Positions 1-40,673 of a stretch of DNA of 40,673 nt are shown in pieces. Within the stretch, counting starts at the first letter, position 1. Each line of letters opens with the position of its first letter. The notes under the pieces are model-generated. The model had not been told where the DNA came from. It was given only the letters and a program-made list of their open reading frames with translations, and made no database searches. Where the stretch lies: the sequence record PQ179042. One strand, 5' to 3'. This DNA is from Escherichia phage KM02. The translations under genes were made by a program, and so were the position numbers.

Positions 1-1
1 T

Positions 2-177
2 TCTCACAGTTCAAGAACCTCAAGTCTCCCCATAGGCCCTCTTTCAGTCAGACCAAAGGCCCTACCCCAGTCTATCATAAGGTTGGACCGATGGTCAAGA
101 CTTCAGGTCAACGATAGGTAGAGGCTATGGCTTAGGGAAGGACGATAGGTTGGGACTATGGGTCTTCTTTGAGTCTC
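2..177. repeat. Left direct terminal repeat (176 bp), identical to 40498-40673
   Basis: Exact match of window start (from nt 2) to window end; nt 1 (t) does not match 40497 (a). T7 has a comparable 160-bp terminal redundancy. Confidence 0.95.
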
Positions 178-197
178 TATCTGTATAGTGTTATAGT
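169..197 (+). promoter_or_regulatory. Candidate host sigma70 early promoter (TTGAGT-17-TATAGT)
   Basis: -35-like ttgagt at 169-174, 17-nt spacer, -10 tatagt at 192-197; straddles the terminal repeat boundary. Confidence 0.4.
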
Positions 198-214
198 ATA
201 ACATTACGTCCTAC

Positions 215-298
215 ACCTACAGTCTCACTAACCTACAGTCTCACTAACCTACAGTCTCAACCATAAGACACCAACACCTACAGTCATAGACCTACAGT
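215..298. repeat. Array of five ACCTACAGT-core short repeats (two full 16-bp units ACCTACAGTCTCACTA) beginning 38 bp inside the left terminal repeat boundary
   Basis: Copies at 215, 231, 247, 276 and 290, read directly. Confidence 0.8.
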
Positions 299-334
299 TA
301 ATAGACACAAGGCTATAGACTTAAGGTCTAAGAC

Positions 335-550
335 ATGTTAGTCAAAGACTATATCCTCTTACACCATGGGGCCGACGATAGCTTAATCAATATTATTTCG
401 AATTACCTATTGACTATAGGTCCAGACTATGGCTTAATAGCTTCCGTCAACACGACACGGCAACAACCGGATAGTGAAGACGCCTGGTCATCCCGGTTAA
501 GTAGACAGCCTGATAAGTCATACGAACAACAGGCAGATGACAGAAAGTAG
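335..550 (+). CDS. Hypothetical early protein (weakly supported)
   Basis: 71-aa ORF in the track; only a weak aagg Shine-Dalgarno; lies upstream of the best host promoter candidate. Confidence 0.25.
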   Translation: MLVKDYILLHHGADDSLINIISNYLLTIGPDYGLIASVNTTRQQPDSEDAWSSRLSRQPDKSYEQQADDRK

Positions 551-580
551 TTGACAAGATGTACCGACTTAAAGTAGTAT
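551..580 (+). promoter_or_regulatory. Candidate host sigma70 early promoter (TTGACA-18-TAGTAT)
   Basis: Perfect -35 TTGACA at 551-556 and -10-like TAGTAT at 575-580, upstream of the early gene cluster, as for the T7 A promoters. Confidence 0.5.
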
Positions 581-708
581 GTACCACATCAACACGAAAC
601 AACGGTGACGACCAACACTAAAACGGTCTACCTGAAGTCCTCTGACTGAAGGGAATGTTCTTTAACAATCTGGATAAACTCTTAATGTGCGCCGATAGCG
701 ACTAACTA

Positions 709-740
709 CAGGGCCTTTGAGTCTACATCTGAAGGCCCTG
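709..740 (+). promoter_or_regulatory. Leader hairpin (9-bp stem cagggcctt/aaggccctg), candidate RNase III processing site
   Basis: Perfect inverted repeat 709-717 / 732-740, followed by a conserved block gactgatagtcactaact-aaagga that recurs at 1058-1080. Confidence 0.45.
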
Positions 741-763
741 ACTGATAGTCACTAACTTAAAGG

Positions 764-1018
764 ATGGACACTATGAAACACTTAAGCACAATCACTAATC
801 ACAATGAAGTATTCGTGAATACTAAAGGTTATGCGTGGATTCAACTTAAAGAGATGACAGGAGCGCGTCACCGTGTGGTAGTGCGCAAGGTCTCAAGCAA
901 GCCGTTCAGCAACTACAGCGTAGATACTGTGCGTATAGACAACGAGACCTACCTGATAGACTCGCAGATAACCGTGAGTCCTACAGCGGGCGTCTCAGCT
1001 CCTTATTTCGCTAACTGA
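764..1018 (+). CDS. Hypothetical early protein (gene 0.3 position; not Ocr-like in composition)
   Basis: ORF in track; SD aagga at 759-763 favours the internal ATG at 773 as the true start; not acidic like T7 Ocr. Confidence 0.5.
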   Translation: MDTMKHLSTITNHNEVFVNTKGYAWIQLKEMTGARHRVVVRKVSSKPFSNYSVDTVRIDNETYLIDSQITVSPTAGVSAPYFAN

Positions 1019-1032
1019 GAGTGATTAACTAC

Positions 1033-1057
1033 AGGTCGTTAGACTTATAGCGGCCTG
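1033..1057 (+). promoter_or_regulatory. Second leader hairpin (7-bp stem with one G-U pair), candidate RNase III site
   Basis: caggtcg 1033-1039 pairs with cggcctg 1051-1057; followed by the same conserved block plus SD as at 741-775. Confidence 0.4.
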
Positions 1058-1088
1058 ACTGATAGTCACTAACTAAAGGATAGACAAT

Positions 1089-1277
1089 ATGGCAGACCGT
1101 AAGCTGACCAAAGCAGAAGTGATAGCCGAATGTCGTGAAACTTTCCGCGAGTTCCCTGAGACTTTCAGAGGTGACGACATAGCAAAACAGCAGTATTGGA
1201 ATGATTACACAGACAGTCTCTGTAAGTCTGGCATGATTTACAACCACCAGTATAACACCTGGTCAAACCCATTCTAA
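1089..1277 (+). CDS. Hypothetical early protein
   Basis: 62-aa ORF with SD aagga 8 nt upstream inside the repeated leader block. Confidence 0.5.
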   Translation: MADRKLTKAEVIAECRETFREFPETFRGDDIAKQQYWNDYTDSLCKSGMIYNHQYNTWSNPF

Positions 1278-1293
1278 CGTAAGGAATATAACC

Positions 1294-1806
1294 ATGAAAC
1301 TGATAGGCAAAGGCGCGTTCACTAAGTGCTACCTGAAGGATTGCGGAAAGCGTGTACTTCTGGTCTCTTCAGACCCAATCAAGGAGTGCATGGCGTGGGG
1401 CTGGTTCCCTGAGTCGCCGCTGTTCCCTGAAGTCAAGATGATTGAGGTAGGCACGTATGAGATGGACTACATGCCACCAACACGAGGACTCAAGGCGCAT
1501 TTAGGTGACGACCAGTGGCAACTCTATCAGGTGCTGCGAGATTGCTTCTCACGGTCTCCGGTATTCTCTCAACCTGCTGACCTGTATCACAAGTGGTACG
1601 AGATATTCCAAGCTGCACACGACAGGTCTGAGACCGAGACTGTGCGGGAAGGTCTGATGGATGTACTGATGGCGCTGGACGCTTGCGCTAACTTTGGGTC
1701 TGACATTCAGTTTGAGATAAGCCCACGCAATGTACGGGCCGTTCACGGCAAGTTGATACTGGTGGACTGCTTCTTCCTTGTGTCCAAGCTGCAAGAGGTG
1801 AGGTAA
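1294..1806 (+). CDS. 0.7: Short Ser/Thr protein kinase, T7 gp0.7-like kinase domain only
   Basis: N-terminal KLIGKGAFTKCY resembles the glycine-rich loop KMLGNGHFSAAY recalled from T7 gp0.7; SD aagga present; 170 aa versus 359 aa in T7. Confidence 0.55.
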   Translation: MKLIGKGAFTKCYLKDCGKRVLLVSSDPIKECMAWGWFPESPLFPEVKMIEVGTYEMDYMPPTRGLKAHLGDDQWQLYQVLRDCFSRSPVFSQPADLYHKWYEIFQAAHDRSETETVREGLMDVLMALDACANFGSDIQFEISPRNVRAVHGKLILVDCFFLVSKLQEVR

Positions 1807-1811
1807 TCAAG

Positions 1812-1961
1812 ATGGTAACTTATGGTCTCTGCCAGCACCACGTCACCAACGCCCGGCTTATGGTCAAGACCGGGCAGTTAAACCACGATGCGACTATGCG
1901 CTATCTGAAAGCGGTCTACGAGGGCCGCAAGCGTATACACGACAGTTTACACGCTGAGTGA
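1812..1961 (+). CDS. Small hypothetical protein (49 aa)
   Basis: ATG at 1812 preceded by gaggtgagg; not in the ORF track because it is under 60 aa. Confidence 0.25.
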   Translation: MVTYGLCQHHVTNARLMVKTGQLNHDATMRYLKAVYEGRKRIHDSLHAE

Positions 1962-2028
1962 CAGACGATAGGTCATCTAACTGATAGGTGGCCTCAAAGA
2001 TTATCACTTAAATTGATAGGGGTTAACT

Positions 2029-2193
2029 ATGAAACTTACAGGCATCACACTTTACGTAACCATCATTCTGTCTTGGCTGACTGCGGTCATAGCTGATGGG
2101 AATGCACTACGCCTTGGTTGGCTGGCAGTTGATATCATATTCTCTCCGGTAGGGGTTGTGCGTGGCATCCTGATGTGGATTGGACTGGCGTGA
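2029..2193 (+). CDS. Small hydrophobic (membrane) protein, 54 aa
   Basis: ORF MKLTGITLYVTIILSWLTAVIADGNALRLGWLAVDIIFSPVGVVRGILMWIGLA read from sequence; weak SD. Confidence 0.3.
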   Translation: MKLTGITLYVTIILSWLTAVIADGNALRLGWLAVDIIFSPVGVVRGILMWIGLA

Positions 2194-2199
2194 TAAACT

Positions 2200-2400
2200 A
2201 TGAGTCTTGCACTATTGATAGCCATAGGCTATGGACTTATCGCCTACGTGCTGGTGAGAGACATCAACAAAGCGCGTAAAGTCTATAAATTCAACTATGT
2301 ACGTATGGTCCGCTGGACTGTACGTCAACCTAACGGACGATTCATGTGCAACCTCGCGAACGTCTGGGATATAGCAACTCTTGGGAGCAAACTACAATGA
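2200..2400 (+). CDS. Hypothetical protein (weak)
   Basis: 66-aa ORF in track; no clear SD; overlaps the next ORF. Confidence 0.2.
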   Translation: MSLALLIAIGYGLIAYVLVRDINKARKVYKFNYVRMVRWTVRQPNGRFMCNLANVWDIATLGSKLQ

Positions 2401-2723
2401 ACAAGTCATACGGGATTAATCTGGTACACTCTATGGACGCAGACATGCAAATGTTAAGCCTACTGGCTACCGGGTATCGTCACGGAACGTCAAGTCACAC
2501 CTCACGTCAACAGCAGGAGCGGGACCGTGTACTACAGGCACGACTCCGGGCAGAGGGCCATAAGTCCGAGCTGATGTGTCTGGCGTATGGTGGACGACCA
2601 ATCACCGACGATGGTAAACTTCTGGTCTCAGGCTGGAAGGCGATAGACCAACGGTCAACCATCAAGCACACGACTCACGGTGACTTCTGTCATCTTCATG
2701 CTAACCCTCTGATATGCAAGTAA
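2346..2723 (+). CDS. Hypothetical early protein (probable start at ATG 2397)
   Basis: 125-aa ORF; ggag lies 9 nt before the internal ATG at 2397. Confidence 0.35.
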   Translation: MQPRERLGYSNSWEQTTMNKSYGINLVHSMDADMQMLSLLATGYRHGTSSHTSRQQQERDRVLQARLRAEGHKSELMCLAYGGRPITDDGKLLVSGWKAIDQRSTIKHTTHGDFCHLHANPLICK

Positions 2724-2728
2724 TTATG

Positions 2729-2751
2729 ACTTAACTATCACTATAGGACTC
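2729..2751 (+). promoter_or_regulatory. Phage-RNAP promoter directly upstream of the RNAP gene
   Basis: cttaactatcactatagg at 2730-2747 matches the consensus of the ten other phage promoters in this genome. Confidence 0.6.
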
Positions 2752-2820
2752 AAGGTCTAAGACTCCAAGTGAAAGACCAAAGAGACTTTAAGTGAAAGAC
2801 TAATAACAAGGACTTTAAGT

Positions 2821-5502
2821 ATGAGCGTCATCTCTATTGAAAAACACGACTTCTCTGATGTGTCGAACGCCATTGAGCCGTTTAACCTGCTGGCTGACCA
2901 CTACGGGCAAGACCTTGCAGTCAAACAGCTTCAGCTTGAGCACGAGGCATACACTGAAGGCGAGCGACGTTTCATCAAGAACCTTGAGCGCCAGACTGAG
3001 CGCGGGGAACTGGCAGACAATCAGGTCGCCAAGCCTTTGATGCAGACTCTGGTCCCTAATATTGCGCAAGCCGTCAGGGAGTGGCATGAAGGGCCAGACG
3101 GGAAGCTGTCAACCTCTCGTCCTAGCGTAGCGTTCACCGTGTTGAGCACTGAAGAGAAGGCCGTCAAGGACCGCTCTATGCGCATCTCCTGTGAGTCTGC
3201 TGCGGTTATCATACTGAAGGTCATACTCTCCAAGCTGGTCAAGCCTGAAGGGATACCGATTACACCGATGGCCTCAGCGATAGGTCGCACACTTGAGGAC
3301 GAAATCCGCTTCGGTCGCATCCGTGACAAGGAGAAAGAGCACTTCAAGAAGGCGATAGCTGATAACCTGAATAAGCGGGCCGGGGCGTCCTACAAGAAAG
3401 CCTACATGCAAGCGGTCGAGGCATCCATGCTGGAGCAAGGCCAACTGGAAGATGCGTGGGGGACTTGGAGTCCGACCGAGGCTGTCCACGTTGGAATCAA
3501 GATGCTGGAGATTGTCATCCAGTCCACACAACTGGTCGAGCTTAAGCGTTACGGTGCTGGCAATGCAGCGGCTGACGTTGAGATGGTCCACCTGTCAGAC
3601 TTCTGGGTCAAGAAGATGGCACAACGAGGATTCAGCCTTGCGGGTATAGCTCCAGTCTACCAGCCTTGCGTCGTTCCACCTAAGCCGTGGACTGGTGTCG
3701 TAGGTGGTGGGTACTGGGCCAAAGGACGCAGACCATTACCACTGATTCGCTTAGGGTCTAAGTCTGCGGTAGCACGCTACGAAGACGTGTATATGCCTGA
3801 AGTCTATGACGCTGTGAACATCATTCAGAATACACCTTGGAAAGTGAACAAGAAGGTTCTGGAAGTGGTGAACATGGTCGAGAAGCTGAACAACACGCCT
3901 ATTGATGACATACCTCAGATGGAACCGCTGAAGCCTGAGGACTATGCGGGTGAGACTGAAGATGAACTCAAGGCATGGAAGAAGGCTGCTGCTGGTATCT
4001 ACCGCCGAGAGAAGGCACGGCAGTCACGCAGATTGTCACTGAGCTTTATCGTTAACCAAGCGAACAAGTTCTCTCAGTTCAAGGTCATATGGTTTCCGTA
4101 CAACATGGACTGGCGCGGTCGCGTCTACGCTGTGCCGATGTTCAACCCTCAAGGCAACGACATGCAGAAAGGTCTCCTTACTCTGGCAGTCGGCAAGCCT
4201 ATTGGCGCTGATGGTTTCAAGTGGCTGAAGGTCCATGGTGCAAACTGTGCGGGTGTCGATAAAGTCACCTTCGAGGAGCGCATCAAGTGGGTGGAAGACA
4301 ACCACGACAACATCATGGCTGCTGCTAAAGCACCGATGGACAGCATTGAGTGGTGGGGCAAGTTAGACTCTCCGTTCTGTTTCCTCGCGTTCTGCTTCGA
4401 GTATGCTGGCGTAATGCACCACGGCCTGTCTTACTCCTGCTCGCTGCCGATAGCGTTCGATGGGTCCTGCTCTGGTATTCAGCACTTCAGTGCGATGCTT
4501 CGTGACCACATCGGTGGACATGCAGTAAACCTGACGCCATCCGGTAAGGTACAAGACATCTACCGCATTGTGTCTGACCGCATTGAGGAGGAGCTTAAAG
4601 TCCTGCTGATTAACGGTACTGACAACGAGATGGGCACTCACGAGGATAAGAAAACTGGTGAGATTACCGAACGTATCAAGCTGGGGACACGAGAGCTGGC
4701 CCGTCAGTGGCTGACATACGGTATGTCACGCAAGGTCACTAAGCGTTCAGTCATGACTCTGGCCTACGGGTCGAAAGAGTATGGCTTCGCAGACCAAGTT
4801 TACGAGGACATCGTGATGCCAGCGATTGACTCAGGGTCTGGCGCTATGTTCACCGAGCCAAGCCAAGCGGCTCGCTTCATGGCTAATATGATTTGGGAAG
4901 CTGTGAGTGTGACCGTAGTTGCTGCGGTAGACGCTATGAAGTGGCTTCAGGGTGCCGCCAAGCTGCTGGCTGCTGAAGTGAAGGACAAGAAGACTGGAGA
5001 AATCCTGAAGCCTTGCCTTCCGGTACACTGGGTAACACCTGATGGTTTCCCGGTCTGGCAGGAATATCGCAAGAAGGATACCACTCGTCTGAACTTGATG
5101 TTCTTAGGGTCATTCAACCTTCAGCCTACCGTCAACAGGGGTACGAAGAAAGAGCTGGACAAGCACAAGCAGGAGTCAGGCATTAGCCCGAACTTCGTCC
5201 ACTCACAAGATGGTAGCCACCTACGCAAGACTGTAGTCCATACTCACCGCAAGTATGGCGTGATGTCGTTCGCAGTGATTCACGATAGCTTCGGGACCAT
5301 CCCGGCTGACGCTGAGTATCTGTTCCGTGGGGTCCGTGAGACTATGGTCGAGACCTACCTAGACAACGATGTGCTGCTTGACTTCTACGAGCAGTTTGAA
5401 TACCAGCTTCACGAGAGCCAGCGCGATAAGTTGCCAGAGCTTCCGAAGAAAGGTAAACTGAATATCGAAGACATCTTGTCTTCAGACTTTGCATTCGCTT
5501 AA
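2821..5502 (+). CDS. 1: DNA-directed RNA polymerase, single-subunit T7-type
   Basis: 893 aa; extensive identity to recalled T7 RNAP motifs (FSDV...PFN.LADHYG, WFPYNMDWRGRVYAV, HGANCAGVDK, ending DFAFA). Confidence 0.98.
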   Translation: MSVISIEKHDFSDVSNAIEPFNLLADHYGQDLAVKQLQLEHEAYTEGERRFIKNLERQTERGELADNQVAKPLMQTLVPNIAQAVREWHEGPDGKLSTSRPSVAFTVLSTEEKAVKDRSMRISCESAAVIILKVILSKLVKPEGIPITPMASAIGRTLEDEIRFGRIRDKEKEHFKKAIADNLNKRAGASYKKAYMQAVEASMLEQGQLEDAWGTWSPTEAVHVGIKMLEIVIQSTQLVELKRYGAGNAAADVEMVHLSDFWVKKMAQRGFSLAGIAPVYQPCVVPPKPWTGVVGGGYWAKGRRPLPLIRLGSKSAVARYEDVYMPEVYDAVNIIQNTPWKVNKKVLEVVNMVEKLNNTPIDDIPQMEPLKPEDYAGETEDELKAWKKAAAGIYRREKARQSRRLSLSFIVNQANKFSQFKVIWFPYNMDWRGRVYAVPMFNPQGNDMQKGLLTLAVGKPIGADGFKWLKVHGANCAGVDKVTFEERIKWVEDNHDNIMAAAKAPMDSIEWWGKLDSPFCFLAFCFEYAGVMHHGLSYSCSLPIAFDGSCSGIQHFSAMLRDHIGGHAVNLTPSGKVQDIYRIVSDRIEEELKVLLINGTDNEMGTHEDKKTGEITERIKLGTRELARQWLTYGMSRKVTKRSVMTLAYGSKEYGFADQVYEDIVMPAIDSGSGAMFTEPSQAARFMANMIWEAVSVTVVAAVDAMKWLQGAAKLLAAEVKDKKTGEILKPCLPVHWVTPDGFPVWQEYRKKDTTRLNLMFLGSFNLQPTVNRGTKKELDKHKQESGISPNFVHSQDGSHLRKTVVHTHRKYGVMSFAVIHDSFGTIPADAEYLFRGVRETMVETYLDNDVLLDFYEQFEYQLHESQRDKLPELPKKGKLNIEDILSSDFAFA

Positions 5503-5520
5503 CAGGAGAGAGAGAGAGCT

Positions 5521-5736
5521 ATGAAATTTGCACACAAGCATACTGGCATTAATGGTGGGACTCAAATCGTGACCGTAACAGAACACAACGGCAAGGGTCT
5601 GGTGAAGACCACGGTCATCCCTACCGAGATGTCCAAGCAGCTTAACATCCCGTTCAAGACTCTTGTAGATCTGGTCGAGTCCAGCCACGAGAAGTACCTG
5701 AAGGACGCAGTGTCCAAACTGGAGCAGACCAAATGA
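5521..5736 (+). CDS. Hypothetical protein
   Basis: 71-aa ORF with SD aggag; follows a (GA)6 run at 5506-5518. Confidence 0.45.
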   Translation: MKFAHKHTGINGGTQIVTVTEHNGKGLVKTTVIPTEMSKQLNIPFKTLVDLVESSHEKYLKDAVSKLEQTK

Positions 5737-5811
5737 CAGACCTACAGTTGCTGGCCTTGTGGCTGGGAGCACTCGCAGTATTCACTTTAATCCAACGCAG
5801 AAGAGGTTAAC

Positions 5812-5834
5812 CCTAAACTATCACTATAGGATTA
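5812..5834 (+). promoter_or_regulatory. Phage-RNAP promoter (T7 phi1.1 analogue)
   Basis: ctaaactatcactatagg at 5813-5830. Confidence 0.75.
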
Positions 5835-5874
5835 GACTCAAGGTCATGACTCAAAGTCGTGGCCTTCATGATTA
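5833..5874 (+). promoter_or_regulatory. Conserved RNase III-site-like motif (copy A; T7 R1.1 position)
   Basis: tagactcaaggtcat-N11-gtggccttcatgatta; near-identical copies at 13420-13461 and 37474-37512. Confidence 0.5.
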
Positions 5875-5907
5875 ACCCTAAATAAACACTACTGGAGATT
5901 TAACCGT

Positions 5908-6087
5908 ATGTATCAGAATACTATCAACTTCGAGCGCATCCGTGAACGTCAGCAGACTGAAGGCTACATACCGAAGGGCCGCAAGCTGAACAAGACTAAA
6001 CGTGGCGGTGGTGTCAAAGGCGCTTTCCGTAATGCTGAAGGTAAAGACTCTATGATCAACCAAGAGAAGTACTTCGTAGGAGCGTAA
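5908..6087 (+). CDS. 1.1: gp1.1-like small basic protein
   Basis: 59-aa ORF with KGRKLNKTKR motif matching T7 gp1.1 as recalled; SD ggag. Confidence 0.55.
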   Translation: MYQNTINFERIRERQQTEGYIPKGRKLNKTKRGGGVKGAFRNAEGKDSMINQEKYFVGA

Positions 6088-6090
6088 GCC

Positions 6091-6342
6091 ATGAGTAAAC
6101 GTTGGTTATTCGACGCATCACCGAGCCAGTGGTCAGCGTTAGGCCGGACTCACCGCGAGATGAGTGAGGCAGGACTTGATGTCAAAATGGATGGCTCGCC
6201 GTGCTCCGGAAAAACTCTGGTAAGAGTAATTGAAGCAGACGGTGTGGGGCTTCTGGTCTCCAGAGAATTTACCGAAGATGAAATCTTTAGCTGTGAGCAA
6301 TGGTGCTTACGACAATTGAACGCTTATAGGAGCTGGAAATAA
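6091..6342 (+). CDS. 1.2: gp1.2-like protein (host dGTPase inhibitor family by position)
   Basis: 83 aa, right size and position, ends in WK like T7 gp1.2; SD aggag. Confidence 0.45.
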   Translation: MSKRWLFDASPSQWSALGRTHREMSEAGLDVKMDGSPCSGKTLVRVIEADGVGLLVSREFTEDEIFSCEQWCLRQLNAYRSWK

Positions 6343-7397
6343 TGACTACGACTATTAAAACTAACCCGCACCGCGCTGTAGATTACTCTGAGTCTGGCGT
6401 TAAGAAGGCTTTGGAAGCTGCTGGGTCACTGGAAGCTGAAGTGAAGTATGACGGTGTGCGGTTGAACCTTCCGGTCTTCCCTACTGGTGAGACTCAATGG
6501 TTGAGCCGTGAGTCCAAAGAGCTTCCGGCCCTAAGCTGGCTGGGCACATCCGGTGACGACATCGGTTCTGCCAAGGCTAGCGACTGGCGATGGTTCCTTA
6601 AACAGGCTGGATACGAAGGTACTGGCCTGATGATTGACGGCGAGGTGATGGTAAAGGGTGTAGACTTCAACACATCCTCAGGACTTATTCGCACGAAGTG
6701 GCTGAAGCCTGATAACCTAAAGTTCAATGACGTAAAGTTTGACGAGATGCCTCGTAAGTCTACAGGCGCTAAGTCTAAACTTCCGTTCCTACTGGCAGCC
6801 GAGCATATCCAAGTGGTTGTATACGGGATTATTGACCTTAACGTCATCCTAGACCCAAAAGCTGAAGGGCCTATCCACAGCGTAACGAGACTGAAGGCCG
6901 AAGCTGTCGTCCCTCTCCTCCAGAAATACTCCCCGGAAATCGACTGGGTGCTATCTGAGAGTCATACAGTGTTTAGCTTAGACGAGCTTACTGACTTGTA
7001 TGAGAAGAAGAGAGAAGAGGGCCATGAGGGTCTGGTAGTTAAAGACCCACTGGGTAAATGGAAGCGTGGCAAGAAGTCAGGCATGTGGAAGATGAAGCCA
7101 AGCGAAGAGGCGGATGGTCATGTTGTGCGCCCTGTGTGGGGTACGGATGGGTTAGCCAACGAAGGCATGGTCATCGGATTTGACGTTATGCTTGAGAACG
7201 GGATGGAGGTCTCCGCAACTAACATTAGTCGCGCCCTTATGTCCGAGTTCACGGAGAATGTTAAGTCAGACCCTGACTACTACAAGGGGTGGGCTTGCCA
7301 AATTACCTACATGGAGAAGACACCAGATGGAAGCCTCCGACACCCGTCATTCGACCAATGGCGGGGGACTGAGGACAATCCAACGGAGAAGATGTAA
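6342..7397 (+). CDS. 1.3: ATP-dependent DNA ligase
   Basis: 351 aa with the ligase adenylation motif KYDGVR; T7 gene 1.3 position. Confidence 0.9.
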   Translation: MTTTIKTNPHRAVDYSESGVKKALEAAGSLEAEVKYDGVRLNLPVFPTGETQWLSRESKELPALSWLGTSGDDIGSAKASDWRWFLKQAGYEGTGLMIDGEVMVKGVDFNTSSGLIRTKWLKPDNLKFNDVKFDEMPRKSTGAKSKLPFLLAAEHIQVVVYGIIDLNVILDPKAEGPIHSVTRLKAEAVVPLLQKYSPEIDWVLSESHTVFSLDELTDLYEKKREEGHEGLVVKDPLGKWKRGKKSGMWKMKPSEEADGHVVRPVWGTDGLANEGMVIGFDVMLENGMEVSATNISRALMSEFTENVKSDPDYYKGWACQITYMEKTPDGSLRHPSFDQWRGTEDNPTEKM

Positions 7398-7579
7398 TGA
7401 TAATTTTTGACCAAGGCATTTGGAAGGTATGGCAACATCCACACTTACAGGTATTCCACATCCTGAAATGGTCTGAGGGAGATGACCCATCCTCTTATGG
7501 GAGCAAGTGGGATTACTTCATACAGAAAGAGTGTTGGAGTATACTCGAGGTAAAGGCATATCTTCAAGCTAACATGTAG
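7397..7579 (+). CDS. Hypothetical protein lying between the ligase stop and a displaced ligase 3' remnant
   Basis: 60-aa ORF; its ATG overlaps the ligase stop (taATGa). Confidence 0.4.
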   Translation: MIIFDQGIWKVWQHPHLQVFHILKWSEGDDPSSYGSKWDYFIQKECWSILEVKAYLQANM

Positions 7580-7582
7580 TAA

Positions 7583-7657
7583 CAATGGCCAGTACTTCGT
7601 CACCCTAGCTTCAAGTGCTGGCGCGGGACGGAAGATAACCCGACCATTAAGAGCTAA
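7583..7657 (+). pseudogene. Displaced, divergent remnant of a ligase C-terminus
   Basis: Encodes QWPVLRHPSFKCWRGTEDNPTIKS, versus the true ligase end SLRHPSFDQWRGTEDNPTEKM; codons differ mainly at synonymous positions. Confidence 0.6.
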
Positions 7658-7666
7658 CTAAATGTC

Positions 7667-7700
7667 AACCCAGTGGTCTTATGACTGCTGGGTTTCTTTG
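7667..7700 (+). terminator. Rho-independent terminator (T7 TE analogue)
   Basis: Stem aacccag (7667-7673) / ctgggtt (7688-7694) followed by tctttg. Confidence 0.55.
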
Positions 7701-7739
7701 CTTATGCTAGCAAGCTATCGTTTGGGCCACCAGCTAGAC

Positions 7740-7762
7740 CCTAAGCTATCACTATAGGACAA
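7740..7762 (+). promoter_or_regulatory. Phage-RNAP promoter (phi1.5-like)
   Basis: ctaagctatcactatagg at 7741-7758; one mismatch to consensus. Confidence 0.65.
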
Positions 7763-7788
7763 CCCTAACCGACCAAAGGAGAAACCTT

Positions 7789-33700: not shown

Positions 33701-34624
33701 GAGCATAGCCTGACTGGTAGTAAGCGTAAGTTCGATGACCGCTGGCTTAAGACCGCTGGTATCTCTGACGAGCAGTGGAAGGGCATTAAGTCCCTCATCC
33801 GTGAGTCAGTGACGCGTGGTCCAGACGGGAAGTACACCATCAAGGATAAGAAGGCGTTCAGTCAGGACCCAAGGGCTATGGACCTCTGGCGTATGGGTGA
33901 TACCATCGCTGACGAAACGTTACTACGTCCTCATAAGCTGTCCAACATGGACGCAAAGGCTTATGGCCCTCTCGCTAAGACTGTCCTTCAGTTTAAGAAC
34001 TTCGTCATCAAGTCCATCAATGGACGTACCATGCGAACCTTCTATAACGCCACGAAGAACAACCGAGCGATGGACGCTGCCCTGTCCACTGTGATCTCTA
34101 TGGGTCTTGCCGGTATCTACTACATGGCTCAGGCTCATGTCAAGGCTTACGCTATGCAGGATGATCGAGGCCGTGACTACCTCAAGCAAGCTCTAGACCC
34201 GACGATGATTGGATATGCAGCTCTATCACGTAGTTCACACCTTGGTGGACCACTTGGGGTCGCCAACATTCTGGGTGGCATCGCTGGGTATGAGGACACT
34301 AAGTTACTCCGCTCGTCTATCCTACCTCGTTCGCCAACAGAGAAGCCTGAACGTGCTATCGCGTATGGTGCAGCTACAAGTGACCCTGTGATGAATGTGG
34401 TCGGCAACTTCCTTGAGCAGGTCCCGGCTTTCGGATATGCTGCTAACGTTGGTGCTTCGGCTTATAACTTGGCGGGATACCTCAAGGCTGATACCCGTGT
34501 CAACGAGCGAGACTACATGACCGGGATGTATAACACGTTCCGTGAACTTGTACCGAATGACCCGATTACCCAGAAGTTGCTGCTTGGAACGTTTGAGGAG
34601 CAAGGCATCCACATCAAGGACTAA
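30737..34624 (+). CDS. 16: Internal virion protein D with a non-T7 N-terminal domain
   Basis: From about residue 190 onward matches T7 gp16 (TGGSP.NL, AGVIGAGVDPLTYVP, RLEARETARN, DLVRSPTGMQSGASGK, LTGRARR, HKLSNMDAKAYGPLAK); the first 130 aa or so lack the T7 SLT motif. Confidence 0.93.
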   Translation: MATRGIRNNNIGNIRVSKDQWEGATGDDGSFVTFDSPESGVRALAKNLQSYGRQGYDSIEKIINRWAPPSENATQSYIDSVVAATGIPATQSIDLTNPDVLASLSEAIGYHETGSRYDPEVYQKGVERALNGISPKTPPVSANVFDALTEGLKAKPKVALGENLPTAAGLNIEGQAPEAPNESFGEMFYKSTGETMQEREDRSTWFGFGSATEAEVKNSMVGVAIRAGQTEDSLDVIGDVFNPTRWNNHKWTRDELDQIRNAGVLPQYYGVITGGSPQNLTELINLALENQKFDQEKAKAGTGAQLAAGVIGAGVDPLTYVPIAGQVGKGAKLVNKMFTVAAQSGALAGVSEMARTSVAGGDAHVAEAILGGALFGGGMTAIADGLGRALGRNTNEFAGPATRLEARETARNVDGQDLSRLPIQEGEQTFSHQGVKFSDVPNEPGSVRLEDGSILIGENPLNPKTRQVFDEVIEPERAAAGVNLGGLTEIGLKLLRSESPEIRGVAADLVRSPTGMQSGASGKIGTTASDVFERLRAVDHRFYNDIDDTVTEALKDPYFQTAFWRDSGAFRQDIYQRVSMAIEDGSGNLKAELTPGELKVYDLLKNQFDAKREMMENPAMFGRPDAQSIFPGSRFKGTYVPHVYSNQMKELYITELGSPEALQEAIKKSWLTSYASRPEVKKRVDEALLEADPTLTPEGLAAAVDKYANDKAYGISHTEQFERSSVMEDNINGLVGLENNSFLEARNLFDSDMSIVLPNGQTFSVNNLREWDMDKIVPAYNRRVNGDIAIMAGTGKTTKDMKDLVETMMNKAGDDGKLKGEVSTLRDTLKILTGRARRDGADDAAFATVMHTMTDLSFFAKNAYMGVQNLTEIGGMLARGNVRAMLHGVPIFRDLAFRNKKVGASEIKDLHNVIFGKELDDSIRPSKQDVIDRLRSYSDLGRGTATALGTAKYYTGELAVRSPFTKVLNGTTNYLLDAGRQGFLSDIVEHSLTGSKRKFDDRWLKTAGISDEQWKGIKSLIRESVTRGPDGKYTIKDKKAFSQDPRAMDLWRMGDTIADETLLRPHKLSNMDAKAYGPLAKTVLQFKNFVIKSINGRTMRTFYNATKNNRAMDAALSTVISMGLAGIYYMAQAHVKAYAMQDDRGRDYLKQALDPTMIGYAALSRSSHLGGPLGVANILGGIAGYEDTKLLRSSILPRSPTEKPERAIAYGAATSDPVMNVVGNFLEQVPAFGYAANVGASAYNLAGYLKADTRVNERDYMTGMYNTFRELVPNDPITQKLLLGTFEEQGIHIKD

Positions 34625-34642
34625 ACTATCACTATAGGAAAC
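34620..34642 (+). promoter_or_regulatory. Phage-RNAP promoter (phi17 analogue)
   Basis: ctaaactatcactatagg at 34621-34638, overlapping the gene 16 stop. Confidence 0.7.
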
Positions 34643-34689
34643 GGGAGGCGCTACCATAGGTCTCCCTTTAATTCATAACGGGAGGCATA

Positions 34690-36903
34690 ATGTCCACGAT
34701 TACACAATTCCCTTCAGGAAGCACTCAGTACAGGATTGAGTTCGACTACCTAGCCAGAACGTTTGTTGTTGTTACGCTGGTGAATAGCTATAACCCTACC
34801 CTGAACCGTGTACTGGAAGTTGGTCGAGATTACCGATTCCTTAACCCAACGATGATTGATATGTTGGTTGACCAATCAGGTTTCGACATCGTTCGTATTC
34901 ACCGTCAGACTGGAACTGACTTAGTGGTAGACTTCAGGAACGGCTCAGTGTTGACAGCTAGTGACCTGACCAATTCAGAGCTTCAGGCTATCCATATTGC
35001 AGAAGAAGGTCGAGACCAAACGGTTGACTTAGCGAAGGAATATGCCGATGCTGCTGGTAGCTCTGCTGGCAACGCTAAGGATAGCGAGGATGAAGCACGC
35101 AGAATCGCTGAGAGTCTCAAGGCATCTGGTCAAATTAGCTATATTACCCGTCGCTCCTTCGAGAAAGGCTTCAACGTTATAACATGGAACGAGGTACTGC
35201 TATGGGAAGAGGATGGTGAGTATTACCGCTGGGATGGTACGCTTCCAAAGAACGTTCCTGCTGGTTCAACTCCTGAAACTTCCGGTGGGATTGGATTAGG
35301 TGCGTGGGTTAGTGTAGGTGATGCTACATTAAGATCTGACTTATCATCTGTGGATGGAATCAGTGTTGTTGGAGCAGCAAACTACGCAAATATCCGCGCA
35401 TATACAGGCCCAGCTAACCACATTAACTGTTATGGTAGAAGCTCTATTTTTGACAATGCTTCTGGGTATTTCTTCGCGGATTCATCCGATACGACAACCC
35501 AAGACAATGACGGAACTGTGCTTGTCGATGCGTCCGGTCGTCGCTGGAAGCGCAGCTATACAGGGCCTGTCGACGCCCGCTGGTTCGGAGTTACGGCAAA
35601 CGGGAGCACGGATGACACCGTTGCAGCTAACAAAGCGCTGGCAACACTTCAACATGTGGTCTTCCCGGTAGGCATAATAATAATCAGTGCACCTCTTATC
35701 TTTGGTACTCAGACCATCGAAGGCGCTGGAACTTATCCAAATGGCTCCTACGGTACTATCATCCAGTGTACAGGCGACCATGCCGCGTTTGAGCATGCTC
35801 CTACTAGGTATCAGCCGGGAGGTATTATTCGTAACTTTTGGATTAATTATCAAGCAGGGAAACCAACTATAACCACTGGAAATGCCAAAGGTGTTAACTT
35901 CGGTACGTCCAACACGTCTATTGATCCGCTGGTTAATGGCGCGACCAAATTTATAGTAGAAAACGTCATTGTCCGTGGTGCTTATTGGGGCTTCTATGAT
36001 GTAACGTCTACATATTTAATGGAGTACAGGAACTGCTGGGCATGGGACTGCTATGTTGGGTTTAAAAAGCATTACGGAACTACCATAAAATATAGCTCTT
36101 GTTACGCACTGGACTGCTACGGCTCGTGGGATATGCAAGATAGTCACTGCGCCACCTTTGAGAACTGCGCCTACGACGGCACAAGCATCATCGGTAACAT
36201 TAAGCCTATTTACTTCAAAGGATGCCCAGGCGTCACAATTAACGGGATGCAGCATGAATCAAGTAAAATTGACGTTTCAGGACGTGGTGACTTTGTTATC
36301 GAAAACTGCGTTGGGTTTGTGCTTAATGGCATGTCAATTCCTTCCTGGCTTAATACGTTAACTACCGGAGAAGCATATCTATTTGAGATTATAAACTCCA
36401 CGGCAGACATAAAGGGAGTAGCCCTCTCTGCGGATGCCGCCAATGTGAAAAGCTCGGGTGCGAATACGTATTTATTTAACGCCAAGAGCGGAAGTATCGT
36501 CAATGTTTCGGCGAGCGGGCTACCGGCTGTGGCTGGGTCATCTTTCAATTACAGCATGTCGGCAGACAGTACCAGCAGAATCGACAGAACTCCAAGTGCG
36601 GTAATTGGTGGATTGACCGCTGGTGCGGTGTTTCGTAACGGCGTGTCCGCGCCTGTGTATGTGGATTACAATTCTGTTACGATTGCCGTTGGTGCTGTTG
36701 CATTGATTGGTACCGTAACCCTGCCCGGAGTTAAATATCAGGACTTCCTGATGGCTGACTCGTCAACAGGGGTGAATGGTTGCACTATAGATGTTGTTAG
36801 GCCAGCGGGAGCAGTTGGGAGTGTTAACGTTTATATCCGTAACAACAACGCATCCCCTGTCACCCTTACAGGCCAAATCGCAATAAGATATCTTAGACCA
36901 TAG
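34690..36903 (+). CDS. 17: Tail fibre/tail spike: T7 gp17-like N-terminal anchor plus beta-helix (pectate-lyase-like) C-terminal domain
   Basis: N-terminus FDYLARTFVVVTL..DYRF...LVDFRNGSVLTASDL matches T7 gp17; the remainder is G/N/T/S/V-rich with ARWFGVTANGSTDDT, typical of depolymerase tailspikes; 737 aa versus 553 aa. Confidence 0.88.
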   Translation: MSTITQFPSGSTQYRIEFDYLARTFVVVTLVNSYNPTLNRVLEVGRDYRFLNPTMIDMLVDQSGFDIVRIHRQTGTDLVVDFRNGSVLTASDLTNSELQAIHIAEEGRDQTVDLAKEYADAAGSSAGNAKDSEDEARRIAESLKASGQISYITRRSFEKGFNVITWNEVLLWEEDGEYYRWDGTLPKNVPAGSTPETSGGIGLGAWVSVGDATLRSDLSSVDGISVVGAANYANIRAYTGPANHINCYGRSSIFDNASGYFFADSSDTTTQDNDGTVLVDASGRRWKRSYTGPVDARWFGVTANGSTDDTVAANKALATLQHVVFPVGIIIISAPLIFGTQTIEGAGTYPNGSYGTIIQCTGDHAAFEHAPTRYQPGGIIRNFWINYQAGKPTITTGNAKGVNFGTSNTSIDPLVNGATKFIVENVIVRGAYWGFYDVTSTYLMEYRNCWAWDCYVGFKKHYGTTIKYSSCYALDCYGSWDMQDSHCATFENCAYDGTSIIGNIKPIYFKGCPGVTINGMQHESSKIDVSGRGDFVIENCVGFVLNGMSIPSWLNTLTTGEAYLFEIINSTADIKGVALSADAANVKSSGANTYLFNAKSGSIVNVSASGLPAVAGSSFNYSMSADSTSRIDRTPSAVIGGLTAGAVFRNGVSAPVYVDYNSVTIAVGAVALIGTVTLPGVKYQDFLMADSSTGVNGCTIDVVRPAGAVGSVNVYIRNNNASPVTLTGQIAIRYLRP

Positions 36904-37015
36904 ATGTAATTAACCACCGCTTCTGCTGGGTGTGGTGGTATAGGCTAACTACACGCTAACCAACGTAGGGTAACAACTTTTGGTCACGGACGACCCGCTT
37001 TAAACTGGAGGTTTT

Positions 37016-37210
37016 ATGATTGAGTTAGACTTCAAGAATGAGGTCCTTAAAGCCTCTCCTATAGTCGGGACCGCTGCGGCTGATGGTGCCAGTCGGTTCT
37101 TCTTCGGACTCACACTTAACGAATGGTTCTACGTTGCAGCTATCGCGTACACCGTTGTCCAGATTGGGGTGCTAGTCTACAAAACGATTAAAGGAGGTGG
37201 TAAAACATGA
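37016..37210 (+). CDS. 17.5: Class II holin
   Basis: FFGLTLNEWFYVAAIAYTVVQIG is near-identical to the T7 gp17.5 core. Confidence 0.88.
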   Translation: MIELDFKNEVLKASPIVGTAAADGASRFFFGLTLNEWFYVAAIAYTVVQIGVLVYKTIKGGGKT

Positions 37211-37470
37211 CGCAGATGGACTTAGAGAAGTTCCTCTTGATGCTAGATACTGAACGTGCTAGACTCATGCTGCAAGACCTGCGGGATGACTCTAAGCGTT
37301 CTCCTCAGCTCTACAACGCCATTGAGAAGCTTCTGGCTCGTCACAACTTTGTGTTAAGCAAGGTGTCTGTTGACGAGAAGACGCTCGCTGATATGGAGGC
37401 CCTGAACGCAGAGTATGATAAGGTGCTCTCAGCGAACGAGGATAATGACACCGGGTATGGTGTCCAGTAA
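37207..37470 (+). CDS. 18: Terminase small subunit
   Basis: LMLDTERARLMLQDL...RSPQLYNAIEKLLARH matches T7 gp18. Confidence 0.88.
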   Translation: MTQMDLEKFLLMLDTERARLMLQDLRDDSKRSPQLYNAIEKLLARHNFVLSKVSVDEKTLADMEALNAEYDKVLSANEDNDTGYGVQ

Positions 37471-37473
37471 GTG

Positions 37474-37512
37474 TTAGACTCAAGGTCATCTATTGGTGGC
37501 CTTCATGATTAG
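37474..37512 (+). promoter_or_regulatory. Conserved RNase III-site-like motif (copy C; T7 R18.5 position)
   Basis: tagactcaaggtcat-N6-gtggccttcatgatta between genes 18 and 18.5. Confidence 0.5.
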
Positions 37513-37562
37513 CACTAACGTAGGTGACTATACGTGAATTCTTTTAAAACAGGAGGGCAACT

Positions 37563-38000
37563 ATGCTCAAACTTTTACGACAGGCCGTCCCTTGGCTGGT
37601 GGCAGGACTCCTGTTCTGTTCAGGCTACTGGGTGGCAGACAATAAGTGGGAGGCGAAAGTAAACGATGAGTACATCACGAAACTTGAGGCACGAGAAAAT
37701 CAACGGGCTGCTGTCCAAGGTGAAATCGACAAAGTGTCAAAAGACTGGCAAGACAAGATGTCCGCGCTGGAAGGCTCTACTGATAGGATTATTGCTGACC
37801 TTAACCACGATAACAAGCGGCTGCGCGTCCGAGTCAACACCTCAGGTCTCACCGAGTCAGATGTCAGTCGATGCTTCCCTAATGGTAGAGTCGAACTACA
37901 CCCAGAAACTTCTAAAAGTCTTATCCGAATAACTCAGGAGGCGGACCTTAAGGAGAAGGCGCTTCAGGACACAATAAGGAGGCTCCAAGGTGTTAAGTGA
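37563..38000 (+). CDS. 18.5: Rz-like i-spanin
   Basis: N-terminal TM segment; ALEGSTDRIIADLNHDNKRLRVRV matches T7 gp18.5. Confidence 0.88.
   Translation: MLKLLRQAVPWLVAGLLFCSGYWVADNKWEAKVNDEYITKLEARENQRAAVQGEIDKVSKDWQDKMSALEGSTDRIIADLNHDNKRLRVRVNTSGLTESDVSRCFPNGRVELHPETSKSLIRITQEADLKEKALQDTIRRLQGVK
37666..37932 (+). CDS. 18.7: Rz1-like o-spanin lipoprotein, embedded in the +1 frame of gene 18.5
   Basis: PRWKALLIGLLLTLTTITSGCASES (lipobox) and SVDASLMVESN match T7 gp18.7. Confidence 0.82.
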   Translation: MSTSRNLRHEKINGLLSKVKSTKCQKTGKTRCPRWKALLIGLLLTLTTITSGCASESTPQVSPSQMSVDASLMVESNYTQKLLKVLSE

Positions 38001-38035
38001 TTACTACAAAGTGGACCTAATGCTGGAGGGACTCT

Positions 38036-39802
38036 ATGTCTAAGAAAACACCTGTTGAAAGACAGGAAGAAATGACCAAAAGGATGAGGGACGACTTCGT
38101 GTTCTTCATCTTCGTTCTCTGGAAAGCTCTTAGCCTTCCGGTTCCAACCCGCTGCCAGATAGATATGTGTAAGAAGCTGGCTGCTGGGGATAATCGCCGC
38201 TTCATCCTTCAGGCGTTCCGTGGTATTGGCAAGTCGTTTCTGACCTGTGGTTTCGTGGTCTGGAAACTATGGAACAACCCAGACTTGAAGTTCATGATTG
38301 TGTCTGCCTCAAAGGAACGAGCCGATGCGAACTCCATCTTCATCAAGCGAATCATCGACCTCATGCCTCAGCTTCAGGAACTCAAACCTAAGCAGGGACA
38401 GCGAGATGCGGTTATCAGCTTTGACGTTGGGCCAGCCAAGCCAGATCACTCACCTTCGGTTAAGTCCGTTGGTATCACTGGTCAGTTGACTGGTAGTCGT
38501 GCTGACATCCTGATTGCCGATGACGTGGAGGTTCCTAACAACTCAGCGACTCAGGCTGCACGAGACCGTCTGTCAGAGCTTGTGAAAGAGTTCGACGCTA
38601 TCCTGAAGCCGGGAGGTACAATCATCTATCTGGGTACTCCTCAGAACGAGATGACCTTGTATCGTGAGCTGGAAGGCCGTGGGTACACCACTACTATCTG
38701 GCCCGCTCGTTATCCACGAGACCGGAAGGACTGGCAGTCTTACGGCGACCGTCTGGCTCCTATGCTTCAGGCAGAGCTTGAAGAGGACCCTGAGTCATTC
38801 TACTGGCGTCCGACTGATGAAGTACGCTTCGATGATACGGACCTTAAGGAACGTGAGCTGTCATATGGTAAGGCTGGCTTCGCTCTACAGTTCATGCTTA
38901 ACCCGAACCTGAGTGATGCCGAGAAGTACCCACTGAAGCTCCGTGACCTTATCGTAGCGGATTTGGACCCAGCGTCCAGCCCAATGGTCTACCAATGGTT
39001 ACCGAACCCTCAGAACAAGCGTGAGGACGTTCCTAACGTTGGACTCATGGGTGACTCATACCACACGTATCAGACTGTAGGTTCTGCCTTCAGTTCGTAC
39101 ACCCAGAAGATTCTGGTCATTGACCCTAGTGGTCGTGGTAAGGATGAAACTGGCTATGCGGTACTGTATCAGCTCAACGGCTACATCTTCGCTATGGAAG
39201 TTGGTGGTATGCGTGGTGGTTATGAAGACTCTACGCTGGAAGCCTTAGCTAAGATTGGTCGTAAGTGGAAGGTCAACGAATACGTCATTGAGGGTAACTT
39301 CGGTGATGGTATGTACCTTGAGCTATTCAAGCCTGTAGCGGCCCGTATCCATCCTGCTGCTGTAACTGAAGTGAAGAGTAAGGGTCAGAAAGAACTCCGC
39401 ATCTGTGACGTTCTGGAGCCTATCATGGGGTCTCACCGGCTTATCGTTAATGCTGCTGCTATCGTCCAAGACTACCAGTCAGCCTCCGATAAGGATGGTG
39501 TGCGTAACCCTATCTACTCCCTCTTCTACCAGATGACCCGTATCTCCCGTGAACGTGGAGCCTTGGCACACGATGACAGACTTGATGCGCTGGCTATCGG
39601 TGTACAGTTCTTCGTTGAGTCTATGGCGAAGGATGCCAACAAAGGCGAACGTGAAGTCACTGAGGAGTGGCTGGAAGAACAGATGGAGAACCCACGGAAA
39701 GGCTTCGAGTCCATCCACACTGAGTTCTGGGACAATGGGGTCCGGGTAACTCACGATACGGACGACGAGCTTGGACTAGGGTCCTACGTTACGTTCCACT
39801 AG
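38036..39802 (+). CDS. 19: Terminase large subunit
   Basis: 588 aa; [25 protein letters not shown] and the nuclease-domain region match T7 gp19. Confidence 0.97.
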
Positions 39803-39897
39803 CTGAATGAATAACTATAGGCGAAAACTGAATTAATACTCAGTTAGTAACCTATAGTTACTACCAGTCTAACCTACTGTTTTATAAGGAGTTTGGA

Positions 39898-39920
39898 CTT
39901 AACTATCACTATAGGGAAGA
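39898..39920 (+). promoter_or_regulatory. Phage-RNAP promoter near the right end (phiOR analogue)
   Basis: cttaactatcactatagggaaga at 39898-39920. Confidence 0.7.
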
Positions 39921-40099
39921 CCAATGGTTACTTATAGTATTACTGTAGTGAATATACATATGCAGACTTTATGCAAGACCTTAGGAGGCAGACTCCGAGT
40001 TCTTACCTAAGGCTTGCACCGATGGAAGGAGGGTGATATTAATCATAATCCCTCCAATACAGATAGTCACCGACCATAGATACAGGAGGTATGTAGCAT

Positions 40100-40258
40100 A
40101 TGGCAAAGACCAAAGCTGTACTTAAAGCTCTGGCGACCAATCGAGCTACATACAGGTTTCTTGCTGCTGTTCTACTTGCTGCTGGCGTTACTGCTGGAAG
40201 TGAGTGGGTCTGGTGGGTCGAGACTCTCGTATGTTCTCTGGTGTCTCAGTGTAGTTAA
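40100..40258 (+). CDS. Small hydrophobic protein (gene 19.5 position)
   Basis: 52-aa ORF with SD acaggagg 10 nt upstream; predicted TM helix LAAVLLAAGVTAG. Confidence 0.4.
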   Translation: MAKTKAVLKALATNRATYRFLAAVLLAAGVTAGSEWVWWVETLVCSLVSQCS

Positions 40259-40420
40259 CGCAATCATGATAACGATTCATGAGCGGAAGACCTAAGGTCA
40301 GTACGTGGATAAAGACTCACTCTACTGACCTTAGCTACTGTAGTCAAGGACTTTAGGTAACACCTTAATAGAAGCTCACTTAGGGTCATCCTACTTATTG
40401 GTCTATCCTAGTGTCGCCTG

Positions 40421-40459
40421 ACCTACGGTCCTTGACCTACAGTGGCTGTGGCCTACAGT
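40421..40459. repeat. Three (A/G)CCTAC(A/G)GT short repeats ending 38 bp before the right terminal repeat
   Basis: acctacggt 40421-40429, acctacagt 40435-40443, gcctacagt 40451-40459; same core as the left-end array. Confidence 0.75.
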
Positions 40460-40497
40460 AGTGACGATGAGTTTTGGACCAAAAGTTTGAGACCACA

Positions 40498-40673
40498 TCT
40501 CACAGTTCAAGAACCTCAAGTCTCCCCATAGGCCCTCTTTCAGTCAGACCAAAGGCCCTACCCCAGTCTATCATAAGGTTGGACCGATGGTCAAGACTTC
40601 AGGTCAACGATAGGTAGAGGCTATGGCTTAGGGAAGGACGATAGGTTGGGACTATGGGTCTTCTTTGAGTCTC
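40498..40673. repeat. Right direct terminal repeat (176 bp), identical to 2-177
   Basis: Exact sequence identity with the left end, read directly. Confidence 0.95.

Follow-up and report, generated by a model that had tools for sequence, protein, structure and literature searches.

Sequence record PQ179042 of Escherichia phage KM02 very probably represents a complete linear virion genome with a T7-type terminal repeat

We analyzed the 40,673-bp sequence record PQ179042 of Escherichia phage KM02 (49.7% G+C; the entire stretch is referred to as the window) with respect to its ends, its gene content and its relatives. The window very probably is the complete linear virion genome of this phage, a member of the genus Kayfunavirus carrying a T7-type terminal repeat of 176 or 177 bp, a reading to which we assign a probability of about 0.93. 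Self-comparison showed that positions 2–177 and 40498–40673 are identical at 176 of 176 bases, and the window holds no third copy of this repeat. A chance origin of a 176-bp exact repeat in 40.7 kb is impossible. The original prediction, made from the letters alone, had stated that the first and last 176 bp are identical, which is incorrect if taken literally, the longest match between a prefix and a suffix of the window being 0 bases, and becomes correct once the left copy is shifted by one base. Position 1 is an unmatched T, and the base preceding the right copy (40497) is an A. The elements defining the two ends are the following:

1 (+), unmatched leading T, outside the repeat; absent from EcoDS1, K1F, Penshu1, T7 and T3 and from the junction of an independent assembly
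2–177 (+), direct terminal repeat, left copy, 176 bp (177 bp if T178 is included), beginning TCTCACAG
40498–40673 (+), direct terminal repeat, right copy, preceded by ...GAGACCACA as in EcoDS1 and Penshu1
179–185 (+), concatemer-junction motif ATCTGTA, directly past the repeat; homologue of ATCTGTT, the T7 class II pause/termination signal

The left terminus at TCTCACAG has the same first bases in T7, EcoDS1, K1F and Penshu1, whereas the T3 repeat begins with TCTCATAG, and the first ~35 nt of the repeat are conserved between T7 and the window. The repeat measures 160 bp in T7, 231 bp in T3 (annotated), 178 bp in EcoDS1 (annotated) and 179 bp in Penshu1 (predicted from reads by PhageTerm). The repeat of the window falls within the range of ~150–250 bp taken as characteristic of T7-type linear genomes of ~40 kb. 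In all four of these phages it ends with ...CT directly before ATCTGT, whereas the right boundary of the window, ...GAGTCTC, lies one base earlier. The K1F record ends at the same base as the window, without an extra base on the left, and stray leading bases are found in the records of CR44b (CT) and GA2A (A); untidy record ends are common. The KM02 record appears to carry a one-base end error, with the leading T as a detail of end definition outside the repeat.

Activated sludge in Yokohama yielded KM02, with E. coli K12 as the isolation host; it was described as a Kayfunavirus genome of 40,673 nt with 49.7% G+C, 53 open reading frames (ORFs) and no tRNA (Nittami et al., Microbiol Resour Announc 2025; PMC12424339). 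Its authors sequenced an unfragmented Nanopore ligation library, assembled the reads with Flye, polished with Medaka, screened adapter sequence from the ends and applied PhageTerm for direct terminal repeats and genuine ends (PMC12424339). The length and G+C content of the window equal the published figures, and the paper cites the sequencing run SRR33209174.

The exact gp17 and gp4 proteins of the window were both located on one Logan contig from this run, SRR33209174_18 (40,528 bp). One part of the contig corresponds to window 24690–40673 running straight into 2–3681 at 100% identity and with a single repeat copy, and the other to window 3652–23201 except for one extra GA in the (GA)n run at 5505–5518. 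The assembly junction reads ...CCACA/TCTCACAG...GAGTCTC/TATCTGT (slashes mark the repeat boundaries), so that an A precedes the repeat and nothing in the assembly matches the leading T of the window. The ends of the contig overlap by 30 nt (k-1 long) inside gene 1, and the contig therefore represents a circularised collapse of 40,498 bp, two more than the 40,496 bp that the window implies, the excess being the GA unit. The unit, the sole difference between the KM02 record and the independent assembly, lies in the ribosome-binding region of the ORF at 5521–5736, and its lack in the window stems either from an error in polishing or from polymorphism in length.

We then weighed whether the terminal identity could be an artefact of assembly or curation, with virion DNA that is circularly permuted by headful packaging and devoid of fixed ends. 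The k-mer assembly of the same run is indeed circular with one repeat copy, and the duplicated ends were not recovered there. However, the artefactual overlap of that contig spans 30 nt in gene 1, as opposed to 176 nt at conserved termini in the window, and both window boundaries lie at most one base from those in T7, T3, EcoDS1 and the PhageTerm-typed Penshu1. Circular permutation is further disfavoured by a large terminase 64% identical to T7 gp19 and by the authors' use of an unfragmented library together with PhageTerm (PMC12424339), and we regard it as very improbable. The original prediction had pointed to assembly of a circularly permuted genome as the scenario that would speak against its reading; a circular contig does arise, but it starts arbitrarily in gene 1 with a 30-nt overlap, whereas the window ends at conserved T7-type termini. 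Likewise, we rejected the idea that the repeat stems from a 177-mer assembler overlap: in the sole naive assembly considered, the overlap measures 30 nt and falls at an unrelated site.

Two explanations of the one-base offset fit equally well. According to the first, to which we give slightly less than an even chance, the true repeat comprises 177 bp (window 2–178, ending ...GAGTCTCT), and the record was rotated by one base, placing the final T in front. A single shift would account for the additional left-hand T as well as for the T lacking at the right end, the implied collapsed circle of 40,496 bp plus 177 bp gives exactly the 40,673 bp of the window, and the resulting boundary CT/ATCTGT is that of T7, T3, EcoDS1 and Penshu1. 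Arguing against a rotation, the K1F record likewise ends with ...GAGTCTC without an additional left base, and the stray leading bases of CR44b and GA2A illustrate that untidy ends arise in several ways. In the Nanopore ligation adapter, the top strand carries a terminal T overhang. The second explanation, for which the odds are likewise just short of even, retains the recorded 176 bp and considers the leading T a library remnant, either of this 3' overhang or of the complement of a dA-tail, that was left after adapter screening. In a ligation-based unfragmented library the reads start where the adapter was joined to the genome ends, the authors screened adapter sequence off the assembly ends (PMC12424339), and the T is missing from the junction of the independent assembly; yet the right end shows no matching stray A and stops one base short of the boundary in the four relatives.

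The motif adjoining the repeat, ATCTGTA, shares six of seven bases with ATCTGTT, the class II pause/termination signal at the T7 concatemer junction (bioRxiv 10.1101/2021.01.11.426313). The seventh base is A in all four Kayfunavirus left ends that were aligned, EcoDS1 annotates the same bases (177–184) as 'concatemeric junction', and ATCTGT[T/A] occurs only once more on the + strand of the window, within gene 1. In T7, the complex of polymerase and lysozyme pauses at the junction signal and engages gp18/gp19, leading to maturation and packaging (PMC3276506). The terminase subunits of KM02 are 48% (gp18) and 64% (gp19) identical to those of T7, with PF11123 and PF22530 matching on the identical contig. 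By analogy with T7, replication would yield head-to-tail concatemers in which adjacent genomes share one repeat copy. Phage RNA polymerase starting from phiOR (39892–39916) would pause at the motif past the repeat and recruit the terminase, which would cut both boundaries while the repeat is duplicated during packaging, leaving a copy at each end of every molecule. After infection, the repeats would in turn let concatemers form anew. We assume, on the T7 model, that ATCTGTA works with the phage's own polymerase.

Several points weigh against the reading of the window as a complete virion genome with a T7-type repeat. The physical ends rest on the authors' statement together with homology; the record is asymmetric, with an extra T at the left and a right end one base short of that in T7, T3, EcoDS1 and Penshu1; and any base change in the junction signal is said to abolish termination by T7 RNA polymerase (bioRxiv 10.1101/2021.01.11.426313), the seventh base in KM02 being A for T.

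Two further features were observed at the left end. At 169–197, the junction motif is overlapped by a sequence that resembles a sigma-70 promoter with an extended -10 (TTGAGT, 17 nt, TG-n-TATAGT); the T7 concatemer-junction terminator has been described to serve E. coli RNA polymerase as an extended -10 promoter as well (2026 preprint). Just inside the left repeat lies an array whose copy number differs among relatives, with EcoDS1 carrying extra ACCATAAGTCAATA units at this position:

210–299 (+), array of short ACCTACAGTC-type direct repeats

To place the genome, we compared it with phage and bacterial collections. The best database matches were Kayfunavirus records at ~93% identity covering 83–90% of the query, the nearest ones in the phage collection being SD6, Vec13, YZ1, MirsaeidiM_Esher2 and Hafnia phage yong1; none of these nearest records matched at species level. 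They differ from KM02 in a mosaic manner in the early genes, the ligase, genes 1.6–1.8, the homing endonucleases, the tailspike carboxy-terminus and the spanins. For MirsaeidiM_Esher2, the authors reported 95.7% identity at 84% coverage (PMC12424339). Nucleotide alignment with EcoDS1 covered 84% of the window at 92% identity, and alignment with T7 covered 34% at 68.5% identity, both colinear and on the plus strand only. ICTV genus practice requires ~70% or more nucleotide similarity over the genome. About 77% of the window bases are identical to EcoDS1 (0.84 aligned × 0.92 identity), above this threshold, and by sequence comparison KM02 belongs to the K1F/EcoDS1 group of the genus Kayfunavirus within the Studiervirinae. 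ARAGORN detected no tRNA or tmRNA in the window, and an Rfam scan at gathering thresholds gave no match.

Megablast of the window against 5,426 complete E. coli genomes returned no match, and the window is therefore not a chromosomal fragment. An origin as a prophage or other piece of a bacterial chromosome has a practically negligible probability: besides this result, no gene resembling an integrase or a host gene turned up on the homology map or in the subset of ORFs that was scanned against Pfam and PHROGs, and length and G+C content are those of the genome of a phage isolate (PMC12424339).

For the gene map, ORFs of at least 30 aa on both strands were compared with the annotated proteins of T7 and EcoDS1. 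Homologues in either phage were found for 48 ORFs; all lie on the + strand, and their order agrees with that in T7 and in EcoDS1. The working gene list contains 58 + strand ORFs covering 91% of the sequence, and the Pfam matches stored for the identical contig SRR33209174_18 agree with the gene assignments. Together with the promoters, terminators and repeat boundaries of the T7 family and the lack of any match among the E. coli genomes, this bears out the original prediction of an entire packaged genome, and no chromosomal fragment, with a full T7-type gene set in canonical order on one strand. Its label 'T7-like' is valid at the level of the family (Studiervirinae) and is better replaced by K1F/EcoDS1-like, T7 itself being distant. 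The assigned genes from the polymerase onwards are:

2821–5502 (+), gene 1, single-subunit RNA polymerase, 893 aa; 98% identical to EcoDS1 gp1 and 62% to T7 gp1
6342–7397 (+), gene 1.3, DNA ligase (homology; Pfam DNA_ligase_A_M on the identical contig)
8551–8709 (+), gene 2, host RNA polymerase inhibitor (homology; PF16857)
8767–9465 (+), gene 2.5, single-strand DNA-binding protein (homology, Pfam)
9881–11002 (+), genes 3 (endonuclease I), 3.2-like and 3.5 (amidase/lysozyme) (homology, Pfam)
11501–13201 (+), gene 4, primase-helicase (homology, Pfam)
13481–15652 (+), gene 5, DNA polymerase, 723 aa (homology, Pfam)
15964–16900 (+), genes 5.5-like and 5.7, plus a 149-aa ORF at 16451–16900 (homology, PHROGs)
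16890–17759 (+), gene 6, 5'-3' exonuclease (homology, Pfam)
17970–19149 (+), genes 6.5, 6.7, 7 and 7.3 (homology, Pfam)
19540–21108 (+), gene 8, portal (head-tail connector) (homology, Pfam)
21205–22089 (+), gene 9, scaffold (homology, Pfam)
22216–23259 (+), gene 10A, major capsid protein, 347 aa (homology)
23238–23390 (+), slippery site G GTT TTC, a heptamer identical to that of T7, and -1 frame extension (10B, ~390 aa in total)
23551–24344 (+), gene 11 (tail tubular A) and a 75-aa ORF common to EcoDS1 (homology)
24772–27129 (+), gene 12, tail tubular B (nozzle) (homology)
27206–34624 (+), genes 13, 14, 15 and 16 (internal virion/ejectosome proteins); a 60-aa remnant of an endonuclease lies at 27664–27846
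34690–36903 (+), gene 17, tailspike, 737 aa, with T7-type amino-terminal adaptor, TSP1/Gp66 N domain and beta-helix receptor module
37016–37470 (+), genes 17.5 (holin) and 18 (small terminase) (homology, Pfam)
37563–38000 (+), genes 18.5 and 18.7 (spanins; 18.7 embedded at 37666–37932) (homology)
38036–39802 (+), gene 19, large terminase; 97% identical to EcoDS1 and 64% to T7 (PF22530)
40100–40258 (+), gene 19.5 (homology)

The 10B extension, ending at 23390, is identical to that of EcoDS1 and carries the motif EETLTP.Q.AARTRAAN common to T7 10B. Between 5.7 and 6, the 149-aa ORF at 16451–16900 (phrog_4382) replaces a shorter, unrelated ORF of EcoDS1.

A 25-nt element with the core CTAAACTATCACTATAGGR occurs in 12 copies, all on the + strand. 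Eleven of them correspond one-to-one to the eleven annotated EcoDS1 phage promoters, individual variant bases included, and the twelfth (5872–5896) is weak, forming a tandem pair like T7 phi1.1A/B. No phage promoter was found to the left of the promoter region of gene 1 (window 1–2723), so that phiOL is lacking. The promoters and the two terminators are located as follows:

2724–2748 (+), phage RNA polymerase promoter before gene 1
5807–5896 (+), tandem promoters (5807–5831 strong, 5872–5896 weak) flanking an RNase III-like hairpin, at the position of T7 phi1.1A/B and the primary origin
7667–7694 (+), early terminator TE, with a T-rich tail after a 12-bp stem, TCTTTGCTT; after the ligase gene, at the same position as EcoDS1 TE
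7735–7759 (+), phage promoter phi1.6
8700–8724 (+), phage promoter phi2.5
11233–11257 (+), phage promoter before gene 4
17881–17905 (+), phage promoter phi6.5
21099–21123 (+), phage promoter phi9
22086–22110 (+), phage promoter phi10
23393–23430 (+), late terminator Tphi, 17-bp stem plus T run, after gene 10
27149–27173 (+), phage promoter phi13
34615–34639 (+), phage promoter phi17
39892–39916 (+), phage promoter phiOR, at the EcoDS1 phiOR position; no further promoter follows before the right repeat

From the correspondence to T7, we infer a putative origin role for 5807–5896. In addition, repeated hairpins with internal loops look like the RNase III sites of the family:

690–765 (+), RNase III-like hairpin ahead of the first early gene (R0.3 position), conserved in EcoDS1
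5822–5890, RNase III-like hairpin between the tandem promoters
13410–13476 (+), RNase III-like hairpin before gene 5 (repeat families D8 and D13)
37464–37527 (+), RNase III-like hairpin before gene 18.5

The early region contains a strong sigma-70-like promoter and, among the ORFs of the window, no homologue of T7 gp0.3 (ocr-like) or gp0.7:

551–580 (+), strong sigma-70-like early promoter (TTGACA, 18 nt, TAGTAT)
764–1018 (+), early ORF, 84 aa, phrog_10124 (gene called from 773 on the independent contig)
1089–1277 (+), early ORF, 62 aa, phrog_336
1294–1806 (+), early 170-aa protein with a protein-kinase-like fold, phrog_11084
1812–2723 (+), early ORFs with homology to 0.35, 0.6 and 0.38 of EcoDS1, and additionally an ORF of 54 aa at 2029–2193

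The promoter at 551–580 appears, by alignment, to match the EcoDS1 host RNA polymerase promoter annotated at 609–647, and a second EcoDS1 host promoter (469–505) appears to correspond to ~407–443 of the window. The third EcoDS1 host promoter sits in a ~190-bp segment that is absent from the window. A 71-aa ORF at 335–550 is probably not a gene, as a 1-bp insertion breaks its frame in EcoDS1 and the CR44b record labels it a pseudogene. The DNA at 335–550 is more conserved than the genome average among four Kayfunavirus genomes, and this conservation is probably regulatory (early promoter region) and not coding.

Searches of the 84-, 62- and 170-aa early proteins against Pfam (even at E = 10) and the PDB sequences gave no match; of the approaches applied to them, fold comparison alone was informative. 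For the 170-aa protein, whose gene occupies the position of the T7 gp0.7 kinase region, we found 115 homologues, many of them on phage-sized contigs (~40–46 kb), with a family size of ~150–200 aa. Its AlphaFold2 model (predicted local distance difference test score, pLDDT, 96.4) adopts a bilobal kinase fold resembling protein kinases and aminoglycoside phosphotransferases with moderate scores, including the minimal kinases HopBF1, NleH1 and OspG. Across 48 homologues, G7, E141, S143, P144, R145, N146 and D158 are invariant and G5 is nearly invariant. In the model, G5 and G7 are located in the turn between strands 1 and 2, so that a glycine-rich loop as well as a metal-binding Asp (D158, DFG-like) are present. 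The catalytic-loop position is formed by E141-I-S143-P144-R145-N146, with Glu where kinases (D-x-x-x-x-N) have Asp, and a conserved strand-3 lysine was not found among the 48 homologues, K2 and K30 being nearly invariant elsewhere. It is conceivable, albeit rather unlikely, that the protein acts as an active minimal protein kinase of the size of OspG, NleH and HopBF1, with an invariant Glu for the catalytic Asp, and that it would serve host takeover in T7-like phages lacking gp0.7.

Among 50,697 phage records, none exceeds 33% identity to the receptor module of the tailspike (35365–36900, the carboxy-terminal two thirds of gene 17). An unrelated phage-like metagenome contig encodes a protein with 96% identity to the module, and Citrobacter freundii 'phage tailspike' proteins with a P22-type head-binding domain (P22-type prophage tailspikes) reach 65%; the module is horizontally shared. 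E. coli K12, the host of isolation, is a rough strain without O-antigen.

Three intact free-standing homing endonuclease genes, two of the HNH and one of the endonuclease VII type, occupy sites without such a gene in EcoDS1:

9462–9896 (+), HNH homing endonuclease gene, like T7 gene 2.8; absent from EcoDS1
19146–19538 (+), HNH homing endonuclease with a helix-turn-helix tail, like T7 gene 7.7; absent from EcoDS1
24356–24796 (+), homing endonuclease gene of the endonuclease VII type that overlaps the gene 12 start

Two endonuclease remnants are located at 15786–15977 and 27664–27846, one of them at the position of the EcoDS1 gene 13.5 endonuclease VII.

The scientific weight of these results is small. 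The genome of KM02 has already been published, and neither it nor its terminal repeat is novel; this is a routine Kayfunavirus genome, and short direct terminal repeats are textbook knowledge for T7-like phages. A complete virion genome was correctly recognised from the sequence alone by the original prediction, and the apparent one-base end error is relevant wherever the KM02 termini are used for cloning, for rebooting or in work on packaging signals. In the independent assembly, reads of the same run form a collapsed circle, an artefact that can here be distinguished from real ends.

Compared with known systems, KM02 shares with T7 a short repeat starting TCTCACAG, the one-strand gene order from 1 to 19.5, its own RNA polymerase and promoters, the terminators TE and Tphi, both terminase subunits and the slippery heptamer of gene 10, which is identical in the two phages. 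It differs from T7 in its repeat of 176/177 bp instead of 160 bp, in a junction motif ending in A instead of T, in its promoter consensus (CTAAACTATCACTATAGGR versus TAATACGACTCACTATAGGGAGA in T7) and in having neither a gp0.3 or gp0.7 homologue nor phiOL. The likeness to EcoDS1 and K1F is closer, comprising gene order, the promoter set and a repeat starting TCTCACAG that is followed by the annotated concatemer junction. With ~77% overall identity, KM02 stays below species level with respect to these phages, lacks the ocr-like gene 0.3 and the third host promoter, and carries other early ORFs, three additional homing endonuclease genes and a different tailspike receptor module.

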